Of a DNA stretch of 64,000 nt, positions 1,484 to 63,170 are shown in pieces. Positions within the stretch are counted from its first letter, which is position 1. Every line of letters begins with the position of its first letter. The notes under the pieces were generated by a model. That model saw nothing but the letters and a program-made list of their open reading frames with translations. It was not told the origin of the DNA and searched no databases. The DNA lies in contig NZFP01000009.1 in the NCBI GenBank assembly GCA_002689325.1, positions 2,587 through 66,586 on the forward strand, written 5' to 3'. The DNA is from Rickettsiales bacterium (lineage in GTDB: Bacteria > Pseudomonadota > Alphaproteobacteria > Methylaequorales > Methylaequoraceae). The position numbers and the translations under genes were made by a program.

Positions 1484-3478
1484 ATGAATAATATTAATAC
1501 TGCTCTACAAAGAGAAAGACAAAAATATAAGGTCCGAACTTTTTATTTATTAGGCTTTATTGGATGTATCTCGATCTTTGTATATTTTTTTTTACTACTT
1601 TCAAATGGCACGAAAATAATTATTTTACCTGAAGAGGCAAGTAAAAATGCAAAGGTAAAATCTGAGAGTTTTTTCGACCTAAGTTTTAATAATTTTATTT
1701 ATTCTTTTAGTTCAAAACCTGTTTTTTCTGTATCATCAAAAGGGTATAAAAAAATCCAAGAAACCATTACACATGAAAACAAAGGTAAATTTCATGAGGT
1801 TTTAATGACCGAACTCCCGGGAATTTTAAATGTGAACATTAATAATAAAAATGAAAATACCCAATGGTTTTTGGATGAGAAATTTATTTTTCAAGGGGAA
1901 AAGTTAGAAATAAGCTTGCCCGCCGGACAATACAATTTAGCAGTTAATAACCCTTTTTTTGAGAAAAAAAATACGAATGTCATTATTGAAAAAGGGGAAC
2001 CTAACAACCTGGATTTAGAACTAAATAATATTAACAGTTTTATAAAAATTGATTCAGAGCCAACTAATGCAACTGTATTTATTAACAAAAAAAAAATTGG
2101 ACAAACCCCAATGATTTTTAAAGATCAAGGTGGTAAGTACATGATTGAAGTTAAAAAAGAGAATTACGAAAAAATTAATGAGACAATAATTATTACAAAT
2201 CAAAATAAAGTAAATCAAAGAAACTATATCTTGGAGCTCATCGAGGCTAAATTAAAAGTCACTACAAAACCAAAAGGAGGAAATTTAAATATCAATGGTT
2301 TGGTTTATCAAACAGATAAATTTATCAATCTTAAATCTAATAAGGAATATATTGTTTCATATGAAAAAGCTGGTTTTAAAAAAAAATCGCTTAATTTAAA
2401 TTTAAAGCCTAATGAAGAAAGAACTGAGACTATTAATTTGGAAGAAGAATATGGTATTGTTGAAATTATTTCTAAACCAAAAGCAGAAATTTGGATTAAT
2501 GAAAAATTATCAGGCCAAACTCCTAAACTGGTTGAGTTAAGAACTATTCAACAGACCATTGAAGTTAGAAAAAAAAACTTCAGGTCTGTGACTAACAAAA
2601 TTTTACCAAAAGCAGATAAAAAGAAGGTTTTAAATATTAGTCTTATTGATGAAAAGACGGCAAGATTGCAAGAGGCAAAATCCTCTTACAATAATTCTAT
2701 TAATATTGAAATGAAATTATTTAACCCAAAAGGCGACATGTTGCAATTAGGTGCTAAACGTCATGAAAAAGGTCAAAGAGCTAATGAAATTTTACGAAAA
2801 GTTAATCTAACCAAACCTTTTTATGTCTCTTTACATGAAGTATCAAATGAAAATTTTACCAATTTTAAAAAAAAGCAATTATCTGGAAATGGAAGTTTTC
2901 CTATAAGCAACATCTCTTGGATCGAAGCTGCAGCTTTCTGCAATTGGTTAAGTAAAAAAGAAAAACTTGAAGAATTTTATGTCATTAAAGGTGGCAAATT
3001 AATTGATTTTAAAGGAAATTCCAATGGATATAGATTACTAACTGAGGCTGAATGGGAGTGGTTGTCAAGAAAAGCAAATAAGAAAAAAGCCAGTAAATTT
3101 AGTTGGGGTGATAGCTTTATAATTCCAGACAATTATCTTAATATTGCCGATGAAAGTGCTCAAAGCAATCAAAGGAACTTTGTAAAAGATTATGATGATG
3201 GTTATGAAAATCTTGCAGAAATTGGGAGTTTCAATAAGGAAAAATCTGGGCTATATGATTTATCAGGTAATCTTAGTGAATGGGTTCATGATTATTATAC
3301 AGTTACTTTCTCCGACAAAATAGAAAAAGATCCATTAGGTAAAAAAAAGGGATCTAGTCATGTAATCAAAGGTGCAAATTGGAGTTCTGGTACATTAACA
3401 AAAATTAGGCCTAGTTATAGAGAAAATGGTATAAAGGGAAATGAGACAACTGGTTTTAGAATAGCAAGATATTTATGA
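1484..3478 (+). CDS. membrane-anchored protein with ~4 PEGA-like beta-sandwich repeats and a C-terminal FGE/SUMF1-fold (formylglycine-generating-enzyme-like) domain lacking the catalytic Cys pair
   Basis: 664 aa. N-terminal TM (FYLLGFIGCISIFVYFFLLL). Repeated segments of the type TNATVFINKKKIGQTPMIF...KYMIEVKKENYE and AEIWINEKLSGQTPKLVEL...IEVRKKNFRS are PEGA-like. C-terminus (ISWIEAAAFCNWLS...GYRLLTEAEWEW...YDLSGNLSEWVHD...GANWSS...GFRIARY) matches the FGE-sulfatase fold. There is no Cys in the region where FGE has its catalytic CxxxxC. Confidence 0.7.
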   Translation: MNNINTALQRERQKYKVRTFYLLGFIGCISIFVYFFLLLSNGTKIIILPEEASKNAKVKSESFFDLSFNNFIYSFSSKPVFSVSSKGYKKIQETITHENKGKFHEVLMTELPGILNVNINNKNENTQWFLDEKFIFQGEKLEISLPAGQYNLAVNNPFFEKKNTNVIIEKGEPNNLDLELNNINSFIKIDSEPTNATVFINKKKIGQTPMIFKDQGGKYMIEVKKENYEKINETIIITNQNKVNQRNYILELIEAKLKVTTKPKGGNLNINGLVYQTDKFINLKSNKEYIVSYEKAGFKKKSLNLNLKPNEERTETINLEEEYGIVEIISKPKAEIWINEKLSGQTPKLVELRTIQQTIEVRKKNFRSVTNKILPKADKKKVLNISLIDEKTARLQEAKSSYNNSINIEMKLFNPKGDMLQLGAKRHEKGQRANEILRKVNLTKPFYVSLHEVSNENFTNFKKKQLSGNGSFPISNISWIEAAAFCNWLSKKEKLEEFYVIKGGKLIDFKGNSNGYRLLTEAEWEWLSRKANKKKASKFSWGDSFIIPDNYLNIADESAQSNQRNFVKDYDDGYENLAEIGSFNKEKSGLYDLSGNLSEWVHDYYTVTFSDKIEKDPLGKKKGSSHVIKGANWSSGTLTKIRPSYRENGIKGNETTGFRIARYL

Positions 3479-3531
3479 ACTTTAAAAAAAAAATAATAAT
3501 TTTTGTCATATTAATTTTTACATGTCTTATA

Positions 3532-3540
3532 TGTTATAAT
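3532..3540 (+). promoter_or_regulatory. possible extended -10 element (TGtTATAAT) upstream of the MotA/ExbB-like gene
   Basis: tgttataat at 3532-3540, 66 bp upstream of ATG 3606. The -35 is weak. In an AT-rich genome such matches occur by chance, hence low confidence. Confidence 0.2.
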
Positions 3541-3560
3541 ATTATTGAGGCTGGAGGCCT

Positions 3561-3593
3561 GAGTATTTCGTTAAATACTCCAATTTCTTTTCC
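3561..3593 (+). terminator. perfect 8-bp hairpin (gagtattt-cgtt-aaatactc) followed by T-rich tract; terminator/attenuator-like element between FGE-fold gene and MotA-like gene
   Basis: Inverted repeat 3561-3568/3573-3580 with 4-nt loop, then caatttcttttcc. It lies 13 nt before ATG 3606. Confidence 0.3.
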
Positions 3594-3605
3594 AGTTGAT
3601 ATTTA

Positions 3606-4361
3606 ATGAATAATATACTCAAGAACTCTCTATTTTTAATTTTTACAGTCATTATTGTGCATTTTATTTTTTCAGGTTTTATAAGACCTGAAGCGAATTT
3701 GATAATTGAAACAGCTAAGAACACACAAACATCAGTACCTAGAAATTTCTATATTATTGTAAAAGACCTTGAACAGGAAATTTGTTTCATATTGTTAATT
3801 TGGGGAGTTTTTTTAATACTTCAAAAATGTCTTAAAATTATCAATTCAAACTATCTTTTTAATATTGACCTTATTGAAAGACAAATTGAAACTAAAAAAA
3901 CGGCAGAAGAAGTCATTAGCAAATTAAATAATCAGCTTGATAAAAATCTTCAAGAAACCCCTCTTATCGAATCTATAAATCTTGCATTACTTAGATACTC
4001 TCAAACAAAAAATGTTCAAAATGTTTCAGATTCTATTAAAAGTAGTATTGAAATGCTCTCAACAAAACAAGATAGTGATAACGCAATGATTAGATATTTG
4101 ATATGGGCTATACCTTCTGTTGGTTTTATTGGAACTGTCAGAGGCATTGGATTAGCATTGTCAAATGCTGATAAGGCAATTGCGGGTAATATTTCATTAA
4201 TGACTGAAAATTTAGGAATAGCTTTTAATTCAACTTTTGTTGCATTAATCATTAGTCTAATTTTAATGCTTTTTTTCCATCAACTACAAAAGCTACAAGA
4301 TGAAAATTTAGTTGATATTCAAGAATATTGTGAAAAATATCTTTATTCTAAGTTCGTATAA
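3606..4361 (+). CDS. MotA/TolQ/ExbB-family proton-channel protein
   Basis: 251 aa. Four predicted TM helices in a 2 + cytoplasmic loop + 2 arrangement. TM3 carries the family signature IWAIPSVGFIGTVRGIGLAL (compare ExbB/TolQ GLLGTVxGI). Confidence 0.7.
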   Translation: MNNILKNSLFLIFTVIIVHFIFSGFIRPEANLIIETAKNTQTSVPRNFYIIVKDLEQEICFILLIWGVFLILQKCLKIINSNYLFNIDLIERQIETKKTAEEVISKLNNQLDKNLQETPLIESINLALLRYSQTKNVQNVSDSIKSSIEMLSTKQDSDNAMIRYLIWAIPSVGFIGTVRGIGLALSNADKAIAGNISLMTENLGIAFNSTFVALIISLILMLFFHQLQKLQDENLVDIQEYCEKYLYSKFV

Positions 4362-4364
4362 ATT

Positions 4365-5435
4365 ATGAAAAAGAAAGAACGTAACAATGATTTTAGCTTA
4401 TCATTTTTAGACATTATGGCATGCGGTTTAGGCGGAGTAATAATAATTTTTTTATTACTAGATAATAAACCTAATTCTATAATTACTGAATCAAAAACAA
4501 ATAATGAAATACTAATTGAGGAGATTGAGAGCCTTTCTAATTCGAATCTAGAACTAAGCACTGCTAATCAGCAATTAGAATTAAATATAGAAAATGAAAA
4601 AAACAAATTATCAACTATTGATAAACAAAACGAAACTCTAGAAAAAAAGATCAAAGACATTGATAAAACTTCCGAAGAAATCAATAAAGAAGTTTCTCAA
4701 TTGAAAGAAAAAATATCTAAGATGCCTCAGGAAATTATTGAAGATCCTATTTCAAATGATGAATTGTTTGAAGAAAATTATATTGAGGGTCTTAGAATAG
4801 TAGGGAAAAAAATTTGTATATTACTTGATTCTAGTTCATCAATGACAGATGAAAAATTATTAGAAATTATCAAAAGGAAGAATTTATCTGACGAAGAAAA
4901 AAAAAAAGGTCCAAAGTGGAAGAGAAGTTTAGATATTGTAAAGTGGGTTTTAGCTAGAGCACCAAAAGAGAGTAATATTGCTGTAATAAGGTTCAGTGAA
5001 ACAGCAAAATATATTGCCAAAGAATCCTTCCAAACCAAAAATAAGAATGATTTAAAAACAATTTTTTTAGGTTTAAATAATATAATCCCCAACGGGCCAA
5101 CTAATTTGTTATCTGCTTTAATACAAGCGGCAAAATTTAAGCCAACCAATATTTATCTAATTACAGATGGATTACCAACTTTTGGTGGAGAAAGATTTAA
5201 AAGTTTAAATCCATTTAATAAATGTGATTCTATTATTGGTTCCTCAAATAAAATATCTGGTGAATGTAGAGTAAAATTATTTAATCAAAGTATAAAATAT
5301 GTAAGTAATAATGGAGCAAAAATAGATATAATTCTCCTACCCGTGGAAGGTGATCCCCAAGCCTCTCCTGAGATGTGGAAATGGGCCTCTGACACAGGTG
5401 GTATATTAATCAGCCCAGCAAAAAATTGGCCATAA
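4365..5435 (+). CDS. ExbD/TolR/MotB-like single-pass anchor fused to coiled coil and von Willebrand factor A domain (paralogue 1)
   Basis: 356 aa. N-terminal TM FSLSFLDIMACGLGGVIIIFLLL with Asp at the ExbD/TolR position. Heptad-rich segment (SLSNSNLELSTANQQLELNIENEKNKL...). vWA with MIDAS DSSSSM ... ITDGLPT. Starts 3 nt after the upstream gene. Confidence 0.6.
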   Translation: MKKKERNNDFSLSFLDIMACGLGGVIIIFLLLDNKPNSIITESKTNNEILIEEIESLSNSNLELSTANQQLELNIENEKNKLSTIDKQNETLEKKIKDIDKTSEEINKEVSQLKEKISKMPQEIIEDPISNDELFEENYIEGLRIVGKKICILLDSSSSMTDEKLLEIIKRKNLSDEEKKKGPKWKRSLDIVKWVLARAPKESNIAVIRFSETAKYIAKESFQTKNKNDLKTIFLGLNNIIPNGPTNLLSALIQAAKFKPTNIYLITDGLPTFGGERFKSLNPFNKCDSIIGSSNKISGECRVKLFNQSIKYVSNNGAKIDIILLPVEGDPQASPEMWKWASDTGGILISPAKNWP

Positions 5436-6370
5436 TGAAAAAAAAAAGGAATTTAGAAAATACACTTTTTTCATTCTTAGATGTTATATCATGTGGGTTT
5501 GGGGCTATTGTCATGTTGGTGTTAATTTACAAATTTAATCCCAGTGAAAATATTGAAAATTATGACGAAGATAATGAAAAATACATTATTAAAATAAACG
5601 AATTACAATCAATTAACGATAAATTAAAAATAACTAAAGAGCAATTAACAAATAAACTTTTAGAAATTAATAAAAAATTTTTAGAAATTAATAATTCTAT
5701 ACAAAATAAACAAAATTCACTCACGTCTGTTGAAAAAAAGAAAAAAGATCTTAAAGATTCTGCTGAAGCATTAAAACTTGTTGAGAATAATCTCAAATCC
5801 TTTTCACTAAAAAAGAAGAAAGAAATTGTAAGGGATATTGAGGTTGGTGGAATTCCTGTTGATAGTGACTATATCATTTTTATAGTTGATACATCTGGAA
5901 GCATGTTGACTATTTGGGATAAAGTTTCAAAGAAAATTGAGAATATTTTAAATATTCATCCAAATGTCAAGGGCTTTCAAATATTGAATGATATGGGAGT
6001 TCCTCTCATTTCTGGTTATAAAAACAAATGGATACCAGATACACCAACTTGGCGTAAAAATTCATTAAAGTTATTCAAAATGTGGGTTATTGCCTCAAAT
6101 AGTAGTCCTTTAGAAGGCATTGAATGGGCACTTATTAAATATTCAGATCCTAAAAAATCTGTAGCAATTTATGTCATGGGTGATGATTACACAGGAGGAG
6201 ATTATGATATAGCAATTAATAAAATAACGAATTTAAATAAAAAAAAAAAATTTAAAACAAGAATTCATGCTATTGGTTTTCTTGCTCAAGATACAACAGA
6301 TAGATTTTCAATTATTATGCGTGAAATAACGAAACAAAACAATGGAACCTTTATCGCTTTGCCAAGATAA
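5426..6370 (+). CDS. ExbD/TolR/MotB-like single-pass anchor fused to coiled coil and vWA domain (paralogue 2)
   Basis: 314 aa. TM TLFSFLDVISCGFGAIVMLVLIY with the same Asp. Coiled coil, then vWA with IIFIVDTSGSM ... VMGDDYTGGD. Overlaps the upstream paralogue by 10 nt, consistent with translational coupling. Confidence 0.6.
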   Translation: MAIMKKKRNLENTLFSFLDVISCGFGAIVMLVLIYKFNPSENIENYDEDNEKYIIKINELQSINDKLKITKEQLTNKLLEINKKFLEINNSIQNKQNSLTSVEKKKKDLKDSAEALKLVENNLKSFSLKKKKEIVRDIEVGGIPVDSDYIIFIVDTSGSMLTIWDKVSKKIENILNIHPNVKGFQILNDMGVPLISGYKNKWIPDTPTWRKNSLKLFKMWVIASNSSPLEGIEWALIKYSDPKKSVAIYVMGDDYTGGDYDIAINKITNLNKKKKFKTRIHAIGFLAQDTTDRFSIIMREITKQNNGTFIALPR

Positions 6371-6374
6371 TTTT

Positions 6375-8000
6375 TTATATCTTTTCTGTGCAAATAATTT
6401 TCAATTGAACGGGCTCATTTCCTGTCAAATTGATATCTAAAAAAATATCTCTGAAACCTTTTTTTTTTCCTATAAAATAGTATTCTCCGGGAGGAAGTTG
6501 AATAATTTTTTCTTCAACTTTCCCAACTTTACCAATACCTCTAATTTCTATATAGGTTTCATTGTCTGAAACAATTTTTACATTTATCTTTATTTCAGAT
6601 TTTTTAATAACATCAGAGACCTCAAGATAATTTTTTAAAAGTGATGGACTAATATCTAAGTATTTTTCCGAACTTTTAAGATCACTAAGAACCACGTTCT
6701 TAAATTTTTGATTCGTAAACCTATGTAAGTTTTTCGAATGACTTTTTAAACTTTTTTTTAAAGATAAAATTTCTTCTGTCATTTCAATTTTTTCTCTAAT
6801 AAAAGCATCATTATTTTCTATGTTTTCAATCTTCTTGAGATTGAGTAATGAGGTTTCCCAATCATCATTACTGGACGCAATATTAAAATTAAAAAGTAAA
6901 TCTTTTTTTATTTTTTCTTCTTTAAGTTTATCTAATTTGTCTTCAAATAAATTTATCTCAGGTCTATTTGGTAAAATTTTCTTTGCTTTTATTAAGAAGT
7001 TTTCTGCATCTTTAATATTTCCATCTTTAAAAAACTTTTCTGCTTTATTAATTTTCTTTGCAAATTCTGTTTCAGCTATTGTGAGACTTAAATTTTTTAT
7101 TTCATCATCTAATTTAGGGTTCTTTTCTATTTGACTGAGCTTTTGCATTAAAAGTAATTCTTTTTTTTTATTATTCTCGTTTCTGGCAGTTTCTAAATTT
7201 TCAAGGATTTGAATTTTTTCTGGAAGCACTTTTATCTTGGTTCTTAACTTTTTTGCTTCTTGAACATTAGGTTTTAATTTGAGGGCATTCTTAATGTTTT
7301 CATCTGCTTTTAAATAAGATAAATCCTTGTAAAATGATTTTGCGTTTGAAAAAAAATTATTAAAATCTTCCTCAAGTTTCTTGTTGGTTTTTTTAATTTC
7401 AAGTTCAGTCTTATCAATTTTTTTTATGGCATCAATAAAGTTTCCTTTATTTTTAATTACAGTAATCTCTTTTCTCATATTCTCAATCTTTTCAATATTT
7501 CGTTGAAAATAATTAAAATTCCAAACAAATAATGAATCATAAAAAAATTTTTCAAGTTCAATTTTCTTGTTTAGAAAAACTTCTTTTGCATTTTTTAAAT
7601 TAATATTCTCAGTTTTATTGGATAAACTTTCCAAGTTATCTTTAATTTTATTTCTTTTATTTGTGGTAATATTACTCTCAAAATTTTGACAATTAAATTC
7701 TGTAAAATCATTGTTGATTGTTGACGTTATTTTCTTATTTTTAAAATCAATAATTTCAATTTTATCATTATCCTCAGTTACATAAGTAAGATTTAAATCA
7801 TCAGAAGAAGTAAATTGCTTGCAGTTTTCTTGGTTGGAAGAATTTATCATGCAAATATTATTTTTGAATTTTGTATATTTGGTTAGTTTATTCGCTCCAT
7901 CTATACATTCCATTGTTAACTCATAATTATTTGCTTTAGAAAAAATTTTATTACTAATTAAAGAAATAAGTATAAAAAAAATTATTTTGTGGAATTTCAT
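6375..8000 (-). CDS. exported Lys-rich coiled-coil protein with C-terminal PEGA-like beta domain
   Basis: 541 aa. Signal peptide MKFHKIIFFILISLISNKIFS. Long K/E-rich helical repeats. C-terminus IEIRGIGKVGKVEEKIIQLPPGEYYFIGKKKGFRDIFLDINL resembles a PEGA domain. Confidence 0.5.
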   Translation of the reverse strand: MKFHKIIFFILISLISNKIFSKANNYELTMECIDGANKLTKYTKFKNNICMINSSNQENCKQFTSSDDLNLTYVTEDNDKIEIIDFKNKKITSTINNDFTEFNCQNFESNITTNKRNKIKDNLESLSNKTENINLKNAKEVFLNKKIELEKFFYDSLFVWNFNYFQRNIEKIENMRKEITVIKNKGNFIDAIKKIDKTELEIKKTNKKLEEDFNNFFSNAKSFYKDLSYLKADENIKNALKLKPNVQEAKKLRTKIKVLPEKIQILENLETARNENNKKKELLLMQKLSQIEKNPKLDDEIKNLSLTIAETEFAKKINKAEKFFKDGNIKDAENFLIKAKKILPNRPEINLFEDKLDKLKEEKIKKDLLFNFNIASSNDDWETSLLNLKKIENIENNDAFIREKIEMTEEILSLKKSLKSHSKNLHRFTNQKFKNVVLSDLKSSEKYLDISPSLLKNYLEVSDVIKKSEIKINVKIVSDNETYIEIRGIGKVGKVEEKIIQLPPGEYYFIGKKKGFRDIFLDINLTGNEPVQLKIICTEKI

Positions 8001-8031: not shown

Positions 8032-9255
8032 TTAGATAGTAGCTGGGATTTCGCCCTCAGGAGTTTTTTCTTTTTCATATATTTTTTTTAAAAATAATCT
8101 CCACTGCGAAAATTGTTCTTTAGCTGTTCCAGTTAACTCTACAGTATCATTACTCAATTCTATTACTTTAGATGACATCTCTACATCTAATGATTGTCCA
8201 AGTTCGTTGATTGCATCTCTGTGGACTTTAGCTTCTGCACTTTTCTTAAAACTATCTTGTAAAAGTGATGTTCCAGCCATACCACCACCTACAGCACCTA
8301 ATGTGCCAAGGGCTTGACCACCAGCGTCACCTGAATTTGCTCCAGCTACTGCAGCTAGAACTGCAGCACCAAGCAACAAAATTCCTCCAATTGCTTTACC
8401 TACAGCTTCTCCTTTGGCTTTGCTTTCAGCTTGTTTTTCCTGAAATGTCTGTTGCTGCCATGTTAAATAACTTGAATCTATGTTTTCGTCAAAATTCATA
8501 TAAAAAACTTGAAGTTCGTCAATAAATAATTGATCGCGAACTCTTAAATTTGATAATCTAAGATATTTTGGATCAGAACTATCAAGTTTTGTTTTAATGA
8601 TGTACTTTCCATCTTCATTTTTATCAATATTTTCCGAAAAAGATTCTTCAGAGAGATTCATACCGAATCTTAAATCACTAATGTATTTTAAATCATCAAG
8701 GTTTTTGGTAGAAACAAATTGAAGCTTTTCTTCGATTTTTTTGGCAATTTTCTGAAAAACCGGGTCATAAGAATCTTCGTTATAACCCCCTTTAGTGTAG
8801 AAATCTTCTGGCACTTGGTGTTCAAAATCGTCATCAATCCACAAGTTACCTGAAATATCTGCCACTTTAATGTCTAATTCAACTTCTTCACTATTTGATT
8901 CCATAATTTTTCCTGAAATATATAAATCACTTGTCGCGTTCAAGTCAGGAACAACTCTGACAGCCCCAAATTTATCTAACTTTTCAATATGTAGTTTAAG
9001 TTTATATGCGAATCTGATTGATTCAGCTTTTCTTAATTCTTTCCAAACATCTTCGTTATTGGATTTAGGAATATTTGAATCAAATACAGCTATTGCAACA
9101 TCTAGTCTTGGTCTAGAATCATCAGCAAAATCTTGAACTTTTTCTTCCTCAAGAATTTGATTTGAAGTTTTTGGACCAAAGTCCATTAACGACTGTGTTG
9201 TTTTACAACTAGATATAAAAAAAGCTATTAATATAAACAAAGAAGTAAGTCTCAT
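8032..9255 (-). CDS. lipoprotein with glycine-zipper (SlyB/17-kDa-antigen-like) segment
   Basis: 407 aa. Lipobox FFISSC. Segment GKAIGGILLLGAAVLAAVAGANSGDAGGQALGTLGAVGGGMAGTSLL is a classic glycine-zipper membrane motif. Confidence 0.55.
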   Translation of the reverse strand: MRLTSLFILIAFFISSCKTTQSLMDFGPKTSNQILEEEKVQDFADDSRPRLDVAIAVFDSNIPKSNNEDVWKELRKAESIRFAYKLKLHIEKLDKFGAVRVVPDLNATSDLYISGKIMESNSEEVELDIKVADISGNLWIDDDFEHQVPEDFYTKGGYNEDSYDPVFQKIAKKIEEKLQFVSTKNLDDLKYISDLRFGMNLSEESFSENIDKNEDGKYIIKTKLDSSDPKYLRLSNLRVRDQLFIDELQVFYMNFDENIDSSYLTWQQQTFQEKQAESKAKGEAVGKAIGGILLLGAAVLAAVAGANSGDAGGQALGTLGAVGGGMAGTSLLQDSFKKSAEAKVHRDAINELGQSLDVEMSSKVIELSNDTVELTGTAKEQFSQWRLFLKKIYEKEKTPEGEIPATI

Positions 9256-9300: not shown

Positions 9301-9846
9301 TCAATCTTCAAGCGGTAAGTTTTTATACTTTCTATACTCGTTCCAAATTTTTTTTTGCTTTTCGGGGTCTCTTTCTTTAAGTGCAGCGTTCTTTATTTGT
9401 TGAGCTAAAACATCATCATTGTCATCAAAGGGAATATCTTCAGGAATTTTTCCATTTGACCCTGAGTTATTTTTATTTATAGAACCTGCGAGTTCATTTT
9501 CAGTGTCTTGATTTTGTTCATCGTATGACTCAGTTGATTCTTGATCTGCTCTAAATTTATTGCCTCTTAATTCTTGTGATCCATCCGATGCATTTTCTAT
9601 ACTATTGTCAGCATTATTTTGCCTTGCTGATGTTTTTGCTTTTATACACTCTTCAAATCTATCCAAGGACTCGAGTAAAGCATCATCCATCGCCTGAATC
9701 TGCTCTCTGTCTGTTAAATATTCATTTTCTGTATAGTTTACATCAAAATTATCGCACTCATCATTAATAGTTTCAGAATAAGGAGCTTTTCCAACAACAA
9801 AAAAAACAATAAGAAGTAAATGACTTAAAAAAAATTTGTACAACAT
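9301..9846 (-). CDS. exported acidic hypothetical protein
   Basis: 181 aa. Signal peptide MLYKFFLSHLLLIVFFVVG. D/E/N/Q-rich mature part. Confidence 0.45.
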   Translation of the reverse strand: MLYKFFLSHLLLIVFFVVGKAPYSETINDECDNFDVNYTENEYLTDREQIQAMDDALLESLDRFEECIKAKTSARQNNADNSIENASDGSQELRGNKFRADQESTESYDEQNQDTENELAGSINKNNSGSNGKIPEDIPFDDNDDVLAQQIKNAALKERDPEKQKKIWNEYRKYKNLPLED

Positions 9847-14183: not shown

Positions 14184-15407
14184 CTAGTAGAGAGCTACCA
14201 ACCTTTTAGATAAATTATTTTTATCAAGTTTTTTAAATAAATTAATAAGTTGATGTATTGTTTTAGATGAATGACTAATGCTCTTTAAAGCTGCAGATAA
14301 TACTTCTACATAGCTATTAATCGTTAATTTTTTATTATCCTCGAATAGTTGACACACAAGAAGAAAATCTGTCAAAGATATAAAAAAAATCATTACTCTG
14401 ATGAAATTGTTTAATGAATTCTTAGAATTCATTATATTATCAATATTTTTTAAAAATTCATTAATAAAGTAGTTTTTAAAAATAAAATCATTCTCTTTTC
14501 TAAATTTATTGAATTTTGTATTGTAAATATAAGTAAATTGTTTAACAAATGTTGTTTTAGGTAAAAATAAATAGTCACTTTTTAAAGCTGATTTTTTACA
14601 GATTTTCCTAAACCTTGAATCTCTGAATTCGCCTTTACTATCAGCAAGACCATTAGAGCTTTGACTTCCCGATTTATTACTGCTAACCAATTTGGAAAAA
14701 CAGAATGATGCCAAAATATTTATATCCGTATGAAGTAAGTCTTTTTTTATTTTCTCATTTTCATTTTTTAAAAAATTATTTACAGAACATTCACTACTAT
14801 TTATTTTATCATAGGAAATTATTATCTGTTTAAGAGTTTCGAAAATGTTACTATAGTCATTTATTTTAAAAAATACTTCTTCTATAAATTTTAATTTTTT
14901 ATCAGATAATTTTTTTTTAGTTTGAAGTGAAAAAACATTATGAGAATTAAAAATATTTGGTAATTTTTTTTTTTTTAATGTTTTAATGTTTAAATCTTTT
15001 TTACTTAAGCATAATCGAGCAATTTCAGGGCATGACAATGAACCTGAAATAAAACCTATTTTATCAAATATTGTTATTTCCCTGGGATAAGTTGAGCAAC
15101 CAATTGATAAACTTTCTTGTCCCATTAACTTAAATGCATTGCATAGTTTATCCTTAGTTAAAAAAGGGCAACAATTATTTTCGTTTACTAACTTTCCGTA
15201 ATTAATATTTGACTTTAGATCGTCTTTAATCAGCGACCTTTGAGAAATTGATTTTATTTCTTTAATAGTTGAATTTTTATATTTTTTATATGTTGCTTTA
15301 TCAATTTTTATATTCCAACCCACACAACAAGAATCAATGCAGTCTTTTCCTATACATTTGAAATCTTGTATATATTCGGGAACAAAAAAATTCTGGTTTG
15401 TTTGCAT
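14184..15407 (-). CDS. FliB-like (flagellin lysine-N-methylase family) Cys-cluster protein
   Basis: 407 aa. N-terminal FKCIGKDCIDSCCVGWNIKIDKATYKKY fits the C-x4-C-x3-CC-GW...DK pattern recalled for FliB family proteins, and the length is comparable. Recognition is from memory of the family motif only. Confidence 0.4.
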   Translation of the reverse strand: MQTNQNFFVPEYIQDFKCIGKDCIDSCCVGWNIKIDKATYKKYKNSTIKEIKSISQRSLIKDDLKSNINYGKLVNENNCCPFLTKDKLCNAFKLMGQESLSIGCSTYPREITIFDKIGFISGSLSCPEIARLCLSKKDLNIKTLKKKKLPNIFNSHNVFSLQTKKKLSDKKLKFIEEVFFKINDYSNIFETLKQIIISYDKINSSECSVNNFLKNENEKIKKDLLHTDINILASFCFSKLVSSNKSGSQSSNGLADSKGEFRDSRFRKICKKSALKSDYLFLPKTTFVKQFTYIYNTKFNKFRKENDFIFKNYFINEFLKNIDNIMNSKNSLNNFIRVMIFFISLTDFLLVCQLFEDNKKLTINSYVEVLSAALKSISHSSKTIHQLINLFKKLDKNNLSKRLVALY

Positions 15408-43108: not shown

Positions 43109-43184
43109 TGGCGATCTTATCTGGACTCGAACCAGAAACTAATCCTTAGGAGGGATTTGTTATATCCACTTTAACTATAAGACC
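43109..43184 (-). tRNA. tRNA-Arg (anticodon CCT)
   Basis: Reverse complement folds as a 76-nt cloverleaf GGTCTTA-TA-GTTA-AAGTGGATA-TAAC-A-AATCC-CTCCTAA-GGATT-AGTT-TCTGG-TTCGAGT-CCAGA-TAAGATC-G-CCA. U8, A14, G18G19, A20, U33, A37 and T-loop TTCGAGT are all present. Confidence 0.85.
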
Positions 43185-61796: not shown

Positions 61797-63170
61797 TTAC
61801 TTTACCCGCCGGTTAGAAATTCTGTTTAAATATCTATTAGAAAATTTTATTTTTCTAGAAAAAATATTACTAAAAAAAGGTTTGCTTTTAAAGTTATAAC
61901 TATCACAAGGATAGGATTTTAAATCCTTCTTAGATGAGCCAAGTTCTTTTTCTAAAACTTCATCTAATGTTTTTAAGATGTTTTGTTGAAAATTAGTTGG
62001 AAAGTAAATTTTTTCTTGAACCAAAAAAACTGGTATTTTAGCTGGCACAGTTTCCTTCAGAAGTCTAAAGAAAACATTAGCTAGGAATGACTCCCAATTA
62101 ATTCGATTACCTTTAAAAAAATAACTGCTGATTTCATGGTTTTTTTTAAGAAAAATACTGATCATTTTCTTTATATCACTGGTATGAATATTTTTATTTA
62201 CAAAAAAATTTCCTTTTTCCAGACATAAAGACTTAATTAGCGATTCATAACTTTTAAGTTTTAGACCTTTAGAAATAATTTTACATTTTTGGGTATAACT
62301 AAAGTCATCTGAAATCTTTAACCTTTTTAATTGAATTTCTTTTATGTTAAATTGTTTTAACAAATAGTTCTCAAAAAAATCATTCAAATCAACATAAGAC
62401 GTAGGATTATTATTAATTAAAAACTTTTCTTGGTAAATACTGGTTAAGCTTATATCGAGGTTATTCCACCAACAACCCTGGAATTTCTCAACATTATAAG
62501 AATCTTTTTTAAACAATATGTTTGCCTGCGACCCAGTCTCAGATATTGTAACTTTTCTTTTGTCACATCTTACGAAAAATTTATTTTCATAAGTTGGAAC
62601 ATCAATTACACTTATGGAAAGAAGATTATTATATCCAACTAAGATTTCTCTAATCTCATGTGTCTTAAAATTATCCTTATACTCAACTTTATTGTTCAAT
62701 TCGTCTCTCATAATGACAAATTCTCTTTGGGGATGGTTAATCTTTTTATCAACAAATTGAAGAGACTCTTCAAAGTAATTTCTTAGTTCCTTTGATGCTC
62801 TAATTCTTGTTAACCTACTTTTTTTTGTTGTTCTATCAAAGAAACCAGGAAAAAAATCAATTAATTTAATTTTTTTTAAAAAGTTTACTGCATTGATCGT
62901 ATAAGAAGAAATATTATTTGGGTTATATCTTGATTTGGAATTATAACCTCTTTTTGACATTGATAAACTTAAAAATTGTTCGCTAGATTCATGCCAGCAG
63001 TAAAAAAGTTCTATTAATAACAACTTCAGGTGTTTTTCTAATAAAATGTTTTTCTCTTTCAAAGAAACAATATTACCTAATAAGCTCTTCGCTTTTTTAA
63101 GATCCAAATTTTTTTGAATATCAAGTGGCCTACTAAAATTAAAATCTATTTGATCATTCACATTATTCAT
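61797..63170 (-). CDS. hypothetical protein
   Basis: 457-aa ORF. No motif recognised. Confidence 0.35.
   Translation of the reverse strand: MNNVNDQIDFNFSRPLDIQKNLDLKKAKSLLGNIVSLKEKNILLEKHLKLLLIELFYCWHESSEQFLSLSMSKRGYNSKSRYNPNNISSYTINAVNFLKKIKLIDFFPGFFDRTTKKSRLTRIRASKELRNYFEESLQFVDKKINHPQREFVIMRDELNNKVEYKDNFKTHEIREILVGYNNLLSISVIDVPTYENKFFVRCDKRKVTISETGSQANILFKKDSYNVEKFQGCWWNNLDISLTSIYQEKFLINNNPTSYVDLNDFFENYLLKQFNIKEIQLKRLKISDDFSYTQKCKIISKGLKLKSYESLIKSLCLEKGNFFVNKNIHTSDIKKMISIFLKKNHEISSYFFKGNRINWESFLANVFFRLLKETVPAKIPVFLVQEKIYFPTNFQQNILKTLDEVLEKELGSSKKDLKSYPCDSYNFKSKPFFSNIFSRKIKFSNRYLNRISNRRVK

Follow-up and report, generated by a model that had tools for sequence, protein, structure and literature searches.

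The window analysed here, a stretch of 64,000 nucleotides from a Rickettsiales bacterium (contig NZFP01000009.1, positions 2,587 to 66,586, of assembly GCA_002689325.1), encodes at positions 1484-3478 a protein, here called D, that may well be a non-catalytic, inner-membrane-anchored and periplasm-spanning structural or binding component of a trans-envelope motor system. D joins a single transmembrane (TM) helix and a stalk of five beta-sandwich units to a C-terminal head with the fold of the formylglycine-generating enzyme (FGE, SUMF1), and its gene belongs to a conserved set of eight, A-B-C-D-E-F-G-H, of which F, G and H form the putative motor. The view that D serves as a scaffold rather than as an enzyme had been put forward in an earlier reading of the same letters (the original prediction), and it is the best supported one, since the active site has been lost, the length of the stalk is fixed, the synteny is conserved and PorK of the secretion system of type IX (T9SS) provides a precedent. 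It is reached by inference from sequence and analogy.

Architecture of D

The gene and the parts of its product are as follows.

1484-3478, + strand: gene D, ATG start, 664 amino acids (aa), a protein with a TM segment, five beta-sandwich units and an FGE-fold domain
1547-1603, + strand: D residues 22-40, single N-in TM helix (Kyte-Doolittle 2.46, N-terminal flank net charge +4)
1610-2647, + strand: D residues 43-388, the stalk, built of five beta-sandwich units of ~65 residues each (PEGA-type in units 2-5)
2684-3475, + strand: D residues 401-664, FGE-sulfatase/C-type-lectin-like head (Pfam, model, Foldseek)
3371-3427, + strand: D residues 630-648, GANWSSGTLTKIRPSYREN, degenerate active-site loop (profile alignment to PDB entry 2aii)

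The hydropathy profile of D contains a single TM-length segment, residues 22-40, and a full-length AlphaFold model gives a helix over residues 2-40. Because this segment is preceded by the positively charged flank, D is predicted to be oriented N-in, consistent with the anchor that had been proposed for it. Beyond the long N-terminal helix, the full-length model contains five beta-sandwich units (predicted local distance difference test, pLDDT, ~85-95), a short helix and the FGE domain. Pfam finds PEGA (PF08308) in three stretches of the stalk (E 1.3e-24), and the repeats were counted with hhalign and with a hidden Markov model (HMM) of the repeat, for which units 3-5 of 30 homologs were used. 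By these measures units 3-5 are clear PEGA domains and unit 2 is a divergent one (hhalign 96.7%, E 4e-10), whereas the membrane-proximal unit 1 carries no PEGA signal by sequence in either the repeat HMM or hhalign. The estimate of about four PEGA repeats thus holds, with one further beta domain to be added to it. The length of D is tightly constrained: the median among homologs is 672 aa, and 90% of them fall between 663 and 680 aa.

The assignment of the C-terminal domain to the FGE fold is firmly upheld. The Pfam family FGE-sulfatase (PF03781) matches D residues 416-662 with an E value of 5e-30 and a profile coverage of 10-255 out of 255, and the motifs on which the assignment had originally been based are all present in the translation (WIEAAAFCNWL at 479-489, GYRLLTEAEWEW at 515-526, LSGNLSEWVHD at 593-603, GANWSSGTLTKIRPSYREN at 630-648 and GFRIARY at 657-663), so that the core motifs of the fold, RLPTEAEWE-like, GNVxEW and GFR, are kept. 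The full-length AlphaFold model is poor in the FGE loops and was replaced by a head-only model built from 121 sequences, which has a predicted TM-score (pTM) of 0.85. A Foldseek comparison of this head, of the kind that the original prediction had called for, returns TvpA (TM-score 0.68), PvdO (0.66-0.70) and the human, S. coelicolor and T. curvata FGEs (~0.6), with PorK at a TMq of 0.46. Alignments of the head to TvpA, CarF and PorK pass unbroken through a beta-hairpin at residues 491-514, and those to true FGEs break there, which places the D head with the non-catalytic branch of the FGE fold. Judging by the alignment to 2aii, many family-invariant residues of the head (E435, N553, D572 and N596) probably fall at the two structural Ca2+ sites of human FGE.

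The head holds a single cysteine, C486 (in FCNWLS; window 2939-2941), which is present in 91% of the 79 divergent family members compared and for which no conserved partner cysteine is found anywhere in the periplasmic part of D. An intermolecular disulfide between PorK and PorG has been reported (PMC12365241), and this offers a possible parallel for C486, the other option being a free thiol.

Loss of the FGE active site

The original prediction held that D lacks the catalytic cysteine pair of FGE, and aligning the D family profile with wild-type human FGE (2aii) bears this out. The FGE segment KGGSYMC336HRSYC341YRYRCAAR pairs with the D family consensus KGANWRSG--TLTELRPAFR, which puts C336 opposite the near-invariant S635 of D and C341 opposite L638, with a deletion of two residues between them. 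The loss extends through the family: no cysteine occurs in the last 70-75 residues of any of 120 D homologs among the matches listed, nor in those of any of 81 proteins translated from related genome loci, which reach down to 27% identity. In an alignment of 79 sequences, no column of the FGE domain other than that of C486 contains cysteine in 10% or more of the members. A sulfatase gene nearby would be the expected companion of a genuine maturase, and the search for one was negative: the PROSITE sulfatase signature PS00523 is absent from every open reading frame (ORF) of the window and of 82 related loci, and the ten window ORFs of sulfatase size belong elsewhere (aconitase, CcmF, a Suv3-like helicase, GltD-like, TrpE-like and similar). 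D is therefore not an FGE enzyme, because the Cu(I)-binding catalytic cysteine pair is missing across the family and no sulfatase lies near it, and a role as a genuine FGE maturase is rejected on these two grounds.

NCBIfam yields only partial, sub-threshold matches to D, namely to GldK, PvdO, GldJ, SenA, EgtB and OvoA, with scores of 21.8 bits against a cut-off of 360 for EgtB, 16.9 against 400 for OvoA and 25.8 against 420 for SenA. By Pfam and in the model, the N-terminal 400 aa of D consist of the TM helix and the beta-sandwich/PEGA units, and neither a DinB-like iron-binding domain nor any other catalytic domain is present in the protein. An EgtB/OvoA/SenA-type enzyme is accordingly ruled out, since the DinB domain is missing and the NCBIfam scores are far under the cut-offs.

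A conserved eight-gene cluster

Gene neighbourhoods and tblastn were used to survey synteny over the 82 loci. The seven genes that accompany D in the window are listed here.

3475-3606, + strand: gene E, N-in single-pass microprotein of 43 aa; overlaps the D stop and F start codons
3606-4361, + strand: gene F, MotA/ExbB/TolQ-family proton-channel subunit (PF01618, E 2e-12)
4365-5435, + strand: gene G, ExbD/TolR-like Asp-bearing TM helix, coiled coil and vWA domain (VWA_2; complete metal-ion-dependent adhesion site, MIDAS, motif)
5426-6370, + strand: gene H, paralogous to G, with SFLDV as its TM motif, a coiled coil and a vWA-like domain with DTSGS
6375-8000, - strand: gene C, protein with TPR repeats and, at the C-terminus, a PEGA/CarboxypepD_reg-like beta domain
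8032-9255, - strand: gene B, lipoprotein with an invariant Cys17 lipobox and a C-terminal glycine-zipper hydrophobic segment (288-306)
9301-9846, - strand: gene A, acidic secreted protein; N-terminus signal-like, C-terminal module conserved

In about 75 of the 82 loci the genes are collinear in the order A-B-C-D-E-F-G-H, with D as gene 4. Of the 82 loci, 79 contain F, 74 contain B and 61 contain A, and C, G and H are each found in 73; most of the misses fall at contig ends. The membership of D in a motor cluster, as first claimed, is thus supported both by its immediate neighbours, a 43-aa ORF followed by the MotA/ExbB gene, and by synteny across loci. The further claim that D is the first gene of the cluster is correct for this lineage only, because in the window the A-B-C block (9846-6375, - strand) is inverted, downstream of H and convergent on it, an arrangement shared with the closest relative, the Rickettsiales metagenome-assembled genome (MAG) SP101 (L003); in nearly all other genomes D is gene 4 and gene C lies directly upstream of it.

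The junctions from D to H are very tight (D and E overlap by 4 nt, E and F share 1 nt, F and G are 3 nt apart, and G and H overlap by 10 nt), which suggests that these genes are translationally coupled. Each of the eight products has a signal, lipobox or TM feature, which assigns the whole cluster to the envelope. The genes that flank the cluster vary among genomes, and no biosynthetic or substrate genes are linked to it.

Several of the components have recognizable conserved elements. The C-terminal module of A reads 'IPxDIP..NDD..QIR.AA..E.DPE...LW.EYRKY', B has no Pfam family match, and in the C family a TPR_2 match is found in 15 of 27 members together with a conserved C-terminal motif, SDN...LxPGxY. 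Microprotein E consists of a TM helix and a short periplasmic tail with the end FPVDI-COOH, and is called as a gene in public records; in at least 60 of 78 loci, across phyla, an ORF with an FPVDI C-terminus lies just upstream of F. Speculatively, its conserved Asp is a candidate ligand for the vWA MIDAS sites. In a divergent clade of clusters (~25 loci, in Pseudomonadales, Microbulbifer, Steroidobacteraceae and Acidobacteriota) a further gene of ~434 aa lies between F and the first vWA gene (L055 12337-13641, + strand), the product of which has no TM segment, is apparently cytoplasmic and has no Pfam or PDB relative. The E microprotein of this clade is longer and acidic, and still ends in [FY]P[VI]DI.

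The motor core and the predicted TolQ-like/vWA family

A putative 5:2 motor family driven by the proton-motive force (PMF), TolQ-like/TPH-vWA (TPH, trans-pore helix), was described in 2025 (Mol Biol Evol 2025;42:msaf138, PMC12204202, Fig. 4c-d). In this family a tolQ-like gene stands without a tolR or exbD gene and the vWA genes occur as heterologous pairs (PMC12204202). The trans-pore helix of each TPH-vWA protein is TolR/ExbD-like, bears a conserved Asp and is placed by AlphaFold 3 (AF3) inside a TolQ-like pentamer; the channel helices of the TolQ-like protein contain conserved Thr, and the distribution is mainly proteobacterial (PMC12204202). The reference organism is Idiomarina loihiensis, the evidence for the 5:2 motor is AF3 prediction only, and the supplements hold no accession or flank list for the vWA clusters (PMC12204202).

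The products of F, G and H match this description closely. Over 31 sequences, P170, G176-T177-V178-R179 and T210 of F are invariant, the Thr residues lying in GTVRG and NST. In G, F14-L15-D16 is conserved, D155, S157, S159 and D268 are invariant and T246 is nearly so. G and H are related to one another (BLASTP E 3e-10), both have a coiled coil of ~110 residues and the vWA MIDAS pattern DxSxS..T..D, and the Asp of the FLD motif is conserved in at least 80% of G and at least 95% of H proteins (66-72 sequences). Pfam and NCBIfam find no ExbD, TolR, MotB or OmpA domain in any of the eight cluster proteins, and sequence searches of the PDB with F and G return only marginal MotA/TolQ (E ~0.4), weak ZorA and generic coiled-coil/vWA matches. 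F, G and H therefore fit each TPH-vWA descriptor of gene content and sequence, including that of a tolQ-like gene without a tolR, exbD or motB neighbour. In Idiomarina the cluster reads 220, 427, 499 (TPR), 665 (PEGA+FGE), 42, MotA_ExbB, VWA_2 and 317 (L086), a comparison made on I. xiamenensis, the paper's reference species being I. loihiensis. Because the descriptors agree and I. xiamenensis has the identical eight-gene cluster, F-G-H and the TPH-vWA family are taken to be the same system.

PEGA, FGE and sulfatase are mentioned neither in the text of PMC12204202 nor in those of its supplements that were searched, and the TPR protein, the lipoprotein and the FPVDI microprotein are likewise absent from that paper. 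A search of the literature on PEGA/FGE proteins with MotA/ExbB motors found nothing specific. Since PMC12204202 omits PEGA, FGE and sulfatase, the partnership of the motor with D, and with A, B, C and E, appears to be undescribed in the literature searched.

Proposed role of D and its alternatives

From this evidence we infer a physical association of D with the motor, a scaffold or anchor role for it and a binding partner. The TM helix of D would anchor it in the inner membrane, and the stalk, fixed in length and made of five units, would project the FGE/C-type-lectin-fold head, presumably stabilized by Ca2+, across the periplasm. From domain counts, the reach of D is estimated at ~20-25 nm (five domains of ~3.5-4 nm each and a head of ~4-5 nm), comparable to that of the coiled coils and vWA heads of G and H, estimated in the same way. 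The engine would be a TolQ-like pentamer of F around a heterodimer of the trans-pore helix paralogs G and H, and proton flow via F would rotate or cycle G and H and so move their vWA heads. These heads may engage, near the peptidoglycan or the outer membrane, a framework or load; D, together with C, B, A and E, could form a static, periplasm-spanning framework for docking and anchoring, or else be that load. The role of D would parallel that of the cysteine-less PorK as docking hub for the PorLM motor. More tentatively, and with noticeably less confidence than for D itself, the whole cluster could be a widespread trans-envelope nanomachine of Proteobacteria and other diderm phyla, streamlined marine plankton included, in which a rotary motor of the TolQ-like/vWA type engages FGE-fold stalks set in an array or ring, D is the periplasmic hub, and the FPVDI microprotein or protein A provides the MIDAS ligands. 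This would make it an independent counterpart, outside the Bacteroidota, of PorLM-PorKN (T9SS/gliding) or of Tol-Pal.

Several observations speak against a structural role for D in the motor. TonB and TolA use an SHLS/His motif for docking on ExbB and TolQ, and the TM helix of D has no conserved His or Ser pattern of this kind in 30 aligned homologs. One locus (L022 6554-8593, + strand) encodes a lone, full-length D homolog of 679 aa, with FANWLS for FCNWLS, which is flanked by pntAB-like and peptide ABC transporter genes and has none of the other seven cluster genes within ~6 kb. Some head residues are invariant specifically in the D family (G423, R426, G430-E435, H626, K629 and R642), the equally cysteine-less PvdO has an enzyme name in NCBIfam, and the loss of the FGE cysteines leaves other chemistry possible. 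The function of PEGA domains, finally, is poorly defined.

Among the alternatives, the one closest to a scaffold is that D acts as a peptidoglycan or glycan anchor of the motor (a 'stator anchor') through its PEGA array, its lectin-like head or both, and not as a hub on which proteins dock. G and H carry vWA heads in place of an OmpA/MotB or ExbD periplasmic domain, which would leave such a function to another protein, the stalk of D has a fixed length, and the FGE fold is a C-type-lectin-like ligand-binding fold, the closest structure being that of a binding protein, TvpA. PEGA has also been classed as peptidoglycan-associating (PMC7159879), but this binding is an annotation-level inference, and no known glycan-binding motif was identified in D. 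As a separate explanation this is unlikely, although it overlaps with a scaffold role and is compatible with it. Less probable still is that D is a periplasmic enzyme with chemistry other than that of FGE, such as a PvdO-like oxidative maturation, or a metal site formed by invariant His, Glu, Arg and Lys, acting on a substrate handled by the motor. The cysteine-less PvdO is the second-best structural match and is named a dehydrogenase in NCBIfam, the D family has the invariant polar residues E435, E599, H626, K629 and R642, and public pipelines call D a 'SUMF1/EgtB/PvdO family nonheme iron enzyme'. However, D has no DinB-type iron domain of the kind found in EgtB, OvoA and SenA, the gene flanks differ by genome with no biosynthetic or substrate genes among them, and the build of D, with its long rigid stalk set on a membrane anchor, is one typical of structural proteins. 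Judging by the 2aii alignment, most of the invariant residues probably belong to the generic core of the FGE fold and its two structural Ca2+ sites.

It is quite improbable that the cluster serves conflict or defence, as a MotAB-like sensor akin to Zorya, with the FGE ('FGS') head of D as a receptor for an invader component at the envelope. FGS and vWA domains do recur in predicted conflict systems, and a receptor role has been proposed for FGS in diversity-generating retroelement (DGR) and vWA ternary systems (PMC7159879). The Zorya motor is of the MotA/ExbB family, to which the weak ZorA match adds, and TvpA, the top structural match of the D head, is a DGR variable protein. Against this, none of the eight proteins has a meaningful PADLOC match, no cytoplasmic effector or nuclease is present and all products are envelope proteins, the D head's C-terminal region is strongly conserved instead of hypervariable, D has no copy on the 72,556 plasmids searched, and the cluster is kept with a fixed gene order in a streamlined marine genome of 27% GC and in at least 562 species. 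That D is a genuine sulfatase-maturing FGE, as its Pfam family and an automatic annotation by JGI would have it, can be dismissed almost entirely, since both Cu(I)-binding cysteines are missing in the ~200 family members examined, and neither a sulfatase signature in the window and the 82 loci nor a sulfatase among the large window ORFs was found.

Distribution and database naming

D belongs to a large family of uniform build. Among word-filtered candidates, 266 homologs of ~670 aa with the same architecture were found at E<=1e-5, and a search at E<=1e-30 gave 773 clusters at 50% identity, almost all of 660-700 aa and matched end-to-end. A D homolog is present in at least 562 species-level genomes, the main hosts being marine and aquatic Alpha- and Gammaproteobacteria; hosts include Sneathiella, Aestuariispira, Agaribacter, Glaciecola, Alteromonas, Pseudoalteromonas, Microbulbifer, Methylophaga and Idiomarina, and beyond these two classes Desulfobulbia, Zetaproteobacteria, Binatia and Acidobacteriota. 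A tblastn search of 72,556 plasmids gave no match to D, and a plasmid or mobile origin is rejected accordingly.

The sequence of D is identical to that of a deposited hypothetical protein of a marine "Rickettsiales bacterium" MAG. Public records of the family (MAI59662.1, RPG15476.1, MDC3090807.1) carry either 'hypothetical protein' or enzyme names. A member of the 90% cluster of D is labelled 'SUMF1/EgtB/PvdO family nonheme iron enzyme', and the JGI auto-annotation for the family is 'formylglycine-generating enzyme required for sulfatase activity'. Such enzyme names find no support in the sequences, and the label is both common and misleading.

Other features of the window

The remainder of the window, which has a GC content of ~27%, is unremarkable where examined, the other genes being housekeeping ones (aconitase, CcmF, GltD-like, TrpE-like, M48 peptidase, Suv3-like helicase and B12-binding radical SAM). 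Divergent from D is an ORF of 272 aa (516-1334, - strand) that is rich in Cys, has a signal-like N-terminus and matches no Pfam family; it adjoins D in near-identical metagenomic contigs (L083, L084) but does not belong to the cluster in distant genomes. Two further ORFs, of 407 aa (14184-15407, - strand) and 457 aa (61797-63170, - strand), have no Pfam match at E<=1e-5. Rfam and tRNA scans of the window found one tRNA-Arg(CCT) only (43109-43184), far from D, and a scan for promoters and terminators was uninformative in such AT-rich DNA.

Significance

The 5:2 motors driven by the PMF (Mot, Ton, Tol, GldLM/PorLM and Zorya) represent a few engines that power very different envelope processes. 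The vWA-headed branch was predicted only in 2025 (PMC12204202). The F-G-H core belongs to this predicted TolQ-like/TPH-vWA family; previously unnoted are D and four further conserved components, namely the TPR protein C, the lipoprotein B, the secreted acidic protein A and the FPVDI microprotein E. These conserved partners of the motor supply candidate 'load' and 'anchor' parts for it, and they make the system addressable by experiment in cultured Idiomarina, Microbulbifer, Pseudoalteromonas, Glaciecola and Sneathiella. After PorK, D is the second case of a cysteine-less FGE fold encoded beside a 5:2-type motor. The analysis also flags the widespread and misleading enzyme names that databases give to the D family.

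Comparison with known systems

The head of D shares with FGE/SUMF1 its Pfam family, its fold (TM-score ~0.6) and its core motifs, but D differs from FGE in having Ser and Leu in place of C336 and C341, the two-residue deletion between them, the hairpin at 491-514, and the fusion to a TM helix and a PEGA stalk. TvpA, a ligand-binding protein, and PvdO are the best structural matches and are, like D, cysteine-less; unlike PvdO and the DGR variable proteins exemplified by TvpA, D is anchored in the membrane on a stalk and has neither DGR nor pyoverdine genes linked to it. The C-terminal segment of D ranks with the best conserved stretches of the family and is not hypervariable, and no reverse transcriptase is found among the cluster genes, all of which are accounted for. 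A DGR variable protein is excluded, given the conserved C-terminus.

The Tol-Pal and Ton operons resemble the cluster in combining a MotA/ExbB-family channel and an Asp-bearing helix with a periplasm-spanning protein on a TM anchor, a TPR protein (compare CpoB) and an outer-membrane lipoprotein (compare Pal). In contrast to them, the cluster lacks the periplasmic domain of TolR/ExbD and the C-terminal domain of TolA/TonB, it has no TolB and no OmpA-like domain, and its heads are of the vWA and FGE folds.

The closest parallel to D is provided by the T9SS. PorK has an FGE-like fold without both catalytic cysteines and is a structural docking hub of a ring that is driven by the PorLM 5:2 motor; PorK/GldK proteins are outer-membrane lipoproteins in the PorKN ring, and the insertion domains of PorK bind PorN (PMC12421860). 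The original prediction had likened D to the structural lipoproteins of the GldK/GldJ type, and this part of it is not sustained. Unlike these lipoproteins, D is held in the inner membrane by a TM anchor and lacks a lipobox Cys, and its scores are partial and far below the cut-offs (60.8 bits against 350 for GldK, TIGR03525, and 35.3 against 458 for GldJ, TIGR03524). The D head is compact, at ~264 aa, against 491 aa and two insertion domains in PorK, it is nearer in structure to TvpA, PvdO and FGE than to PorK, and a PorN/GldN homolog is absent from the cluster. Membership of D in GldK/GldJ is therefore discarded on the basis of NCBIfam scores, structure match and the missing lipobox. The motors differ as well: that of the D cluster is of the MotA/ExbB sequence type with vWA partners and is found in Proteobacteria and others, whereas the T9SS is found in Bacteroidota. 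The periplasm-spanning, Ig-like beta-sandwich domains are carried by PorM in the T9SS and by D itself here, and the gene order is K-L-M-N in the former and D-E-F-G-H in the latter. What D and PorK/GldK do share is a cysteine-less FGE fold, a gene beside a PMF-driven motor and a trans-envelope setting, and the resemblance of D to PorK is thus best regarded as one of functional analogy, not of family membership.

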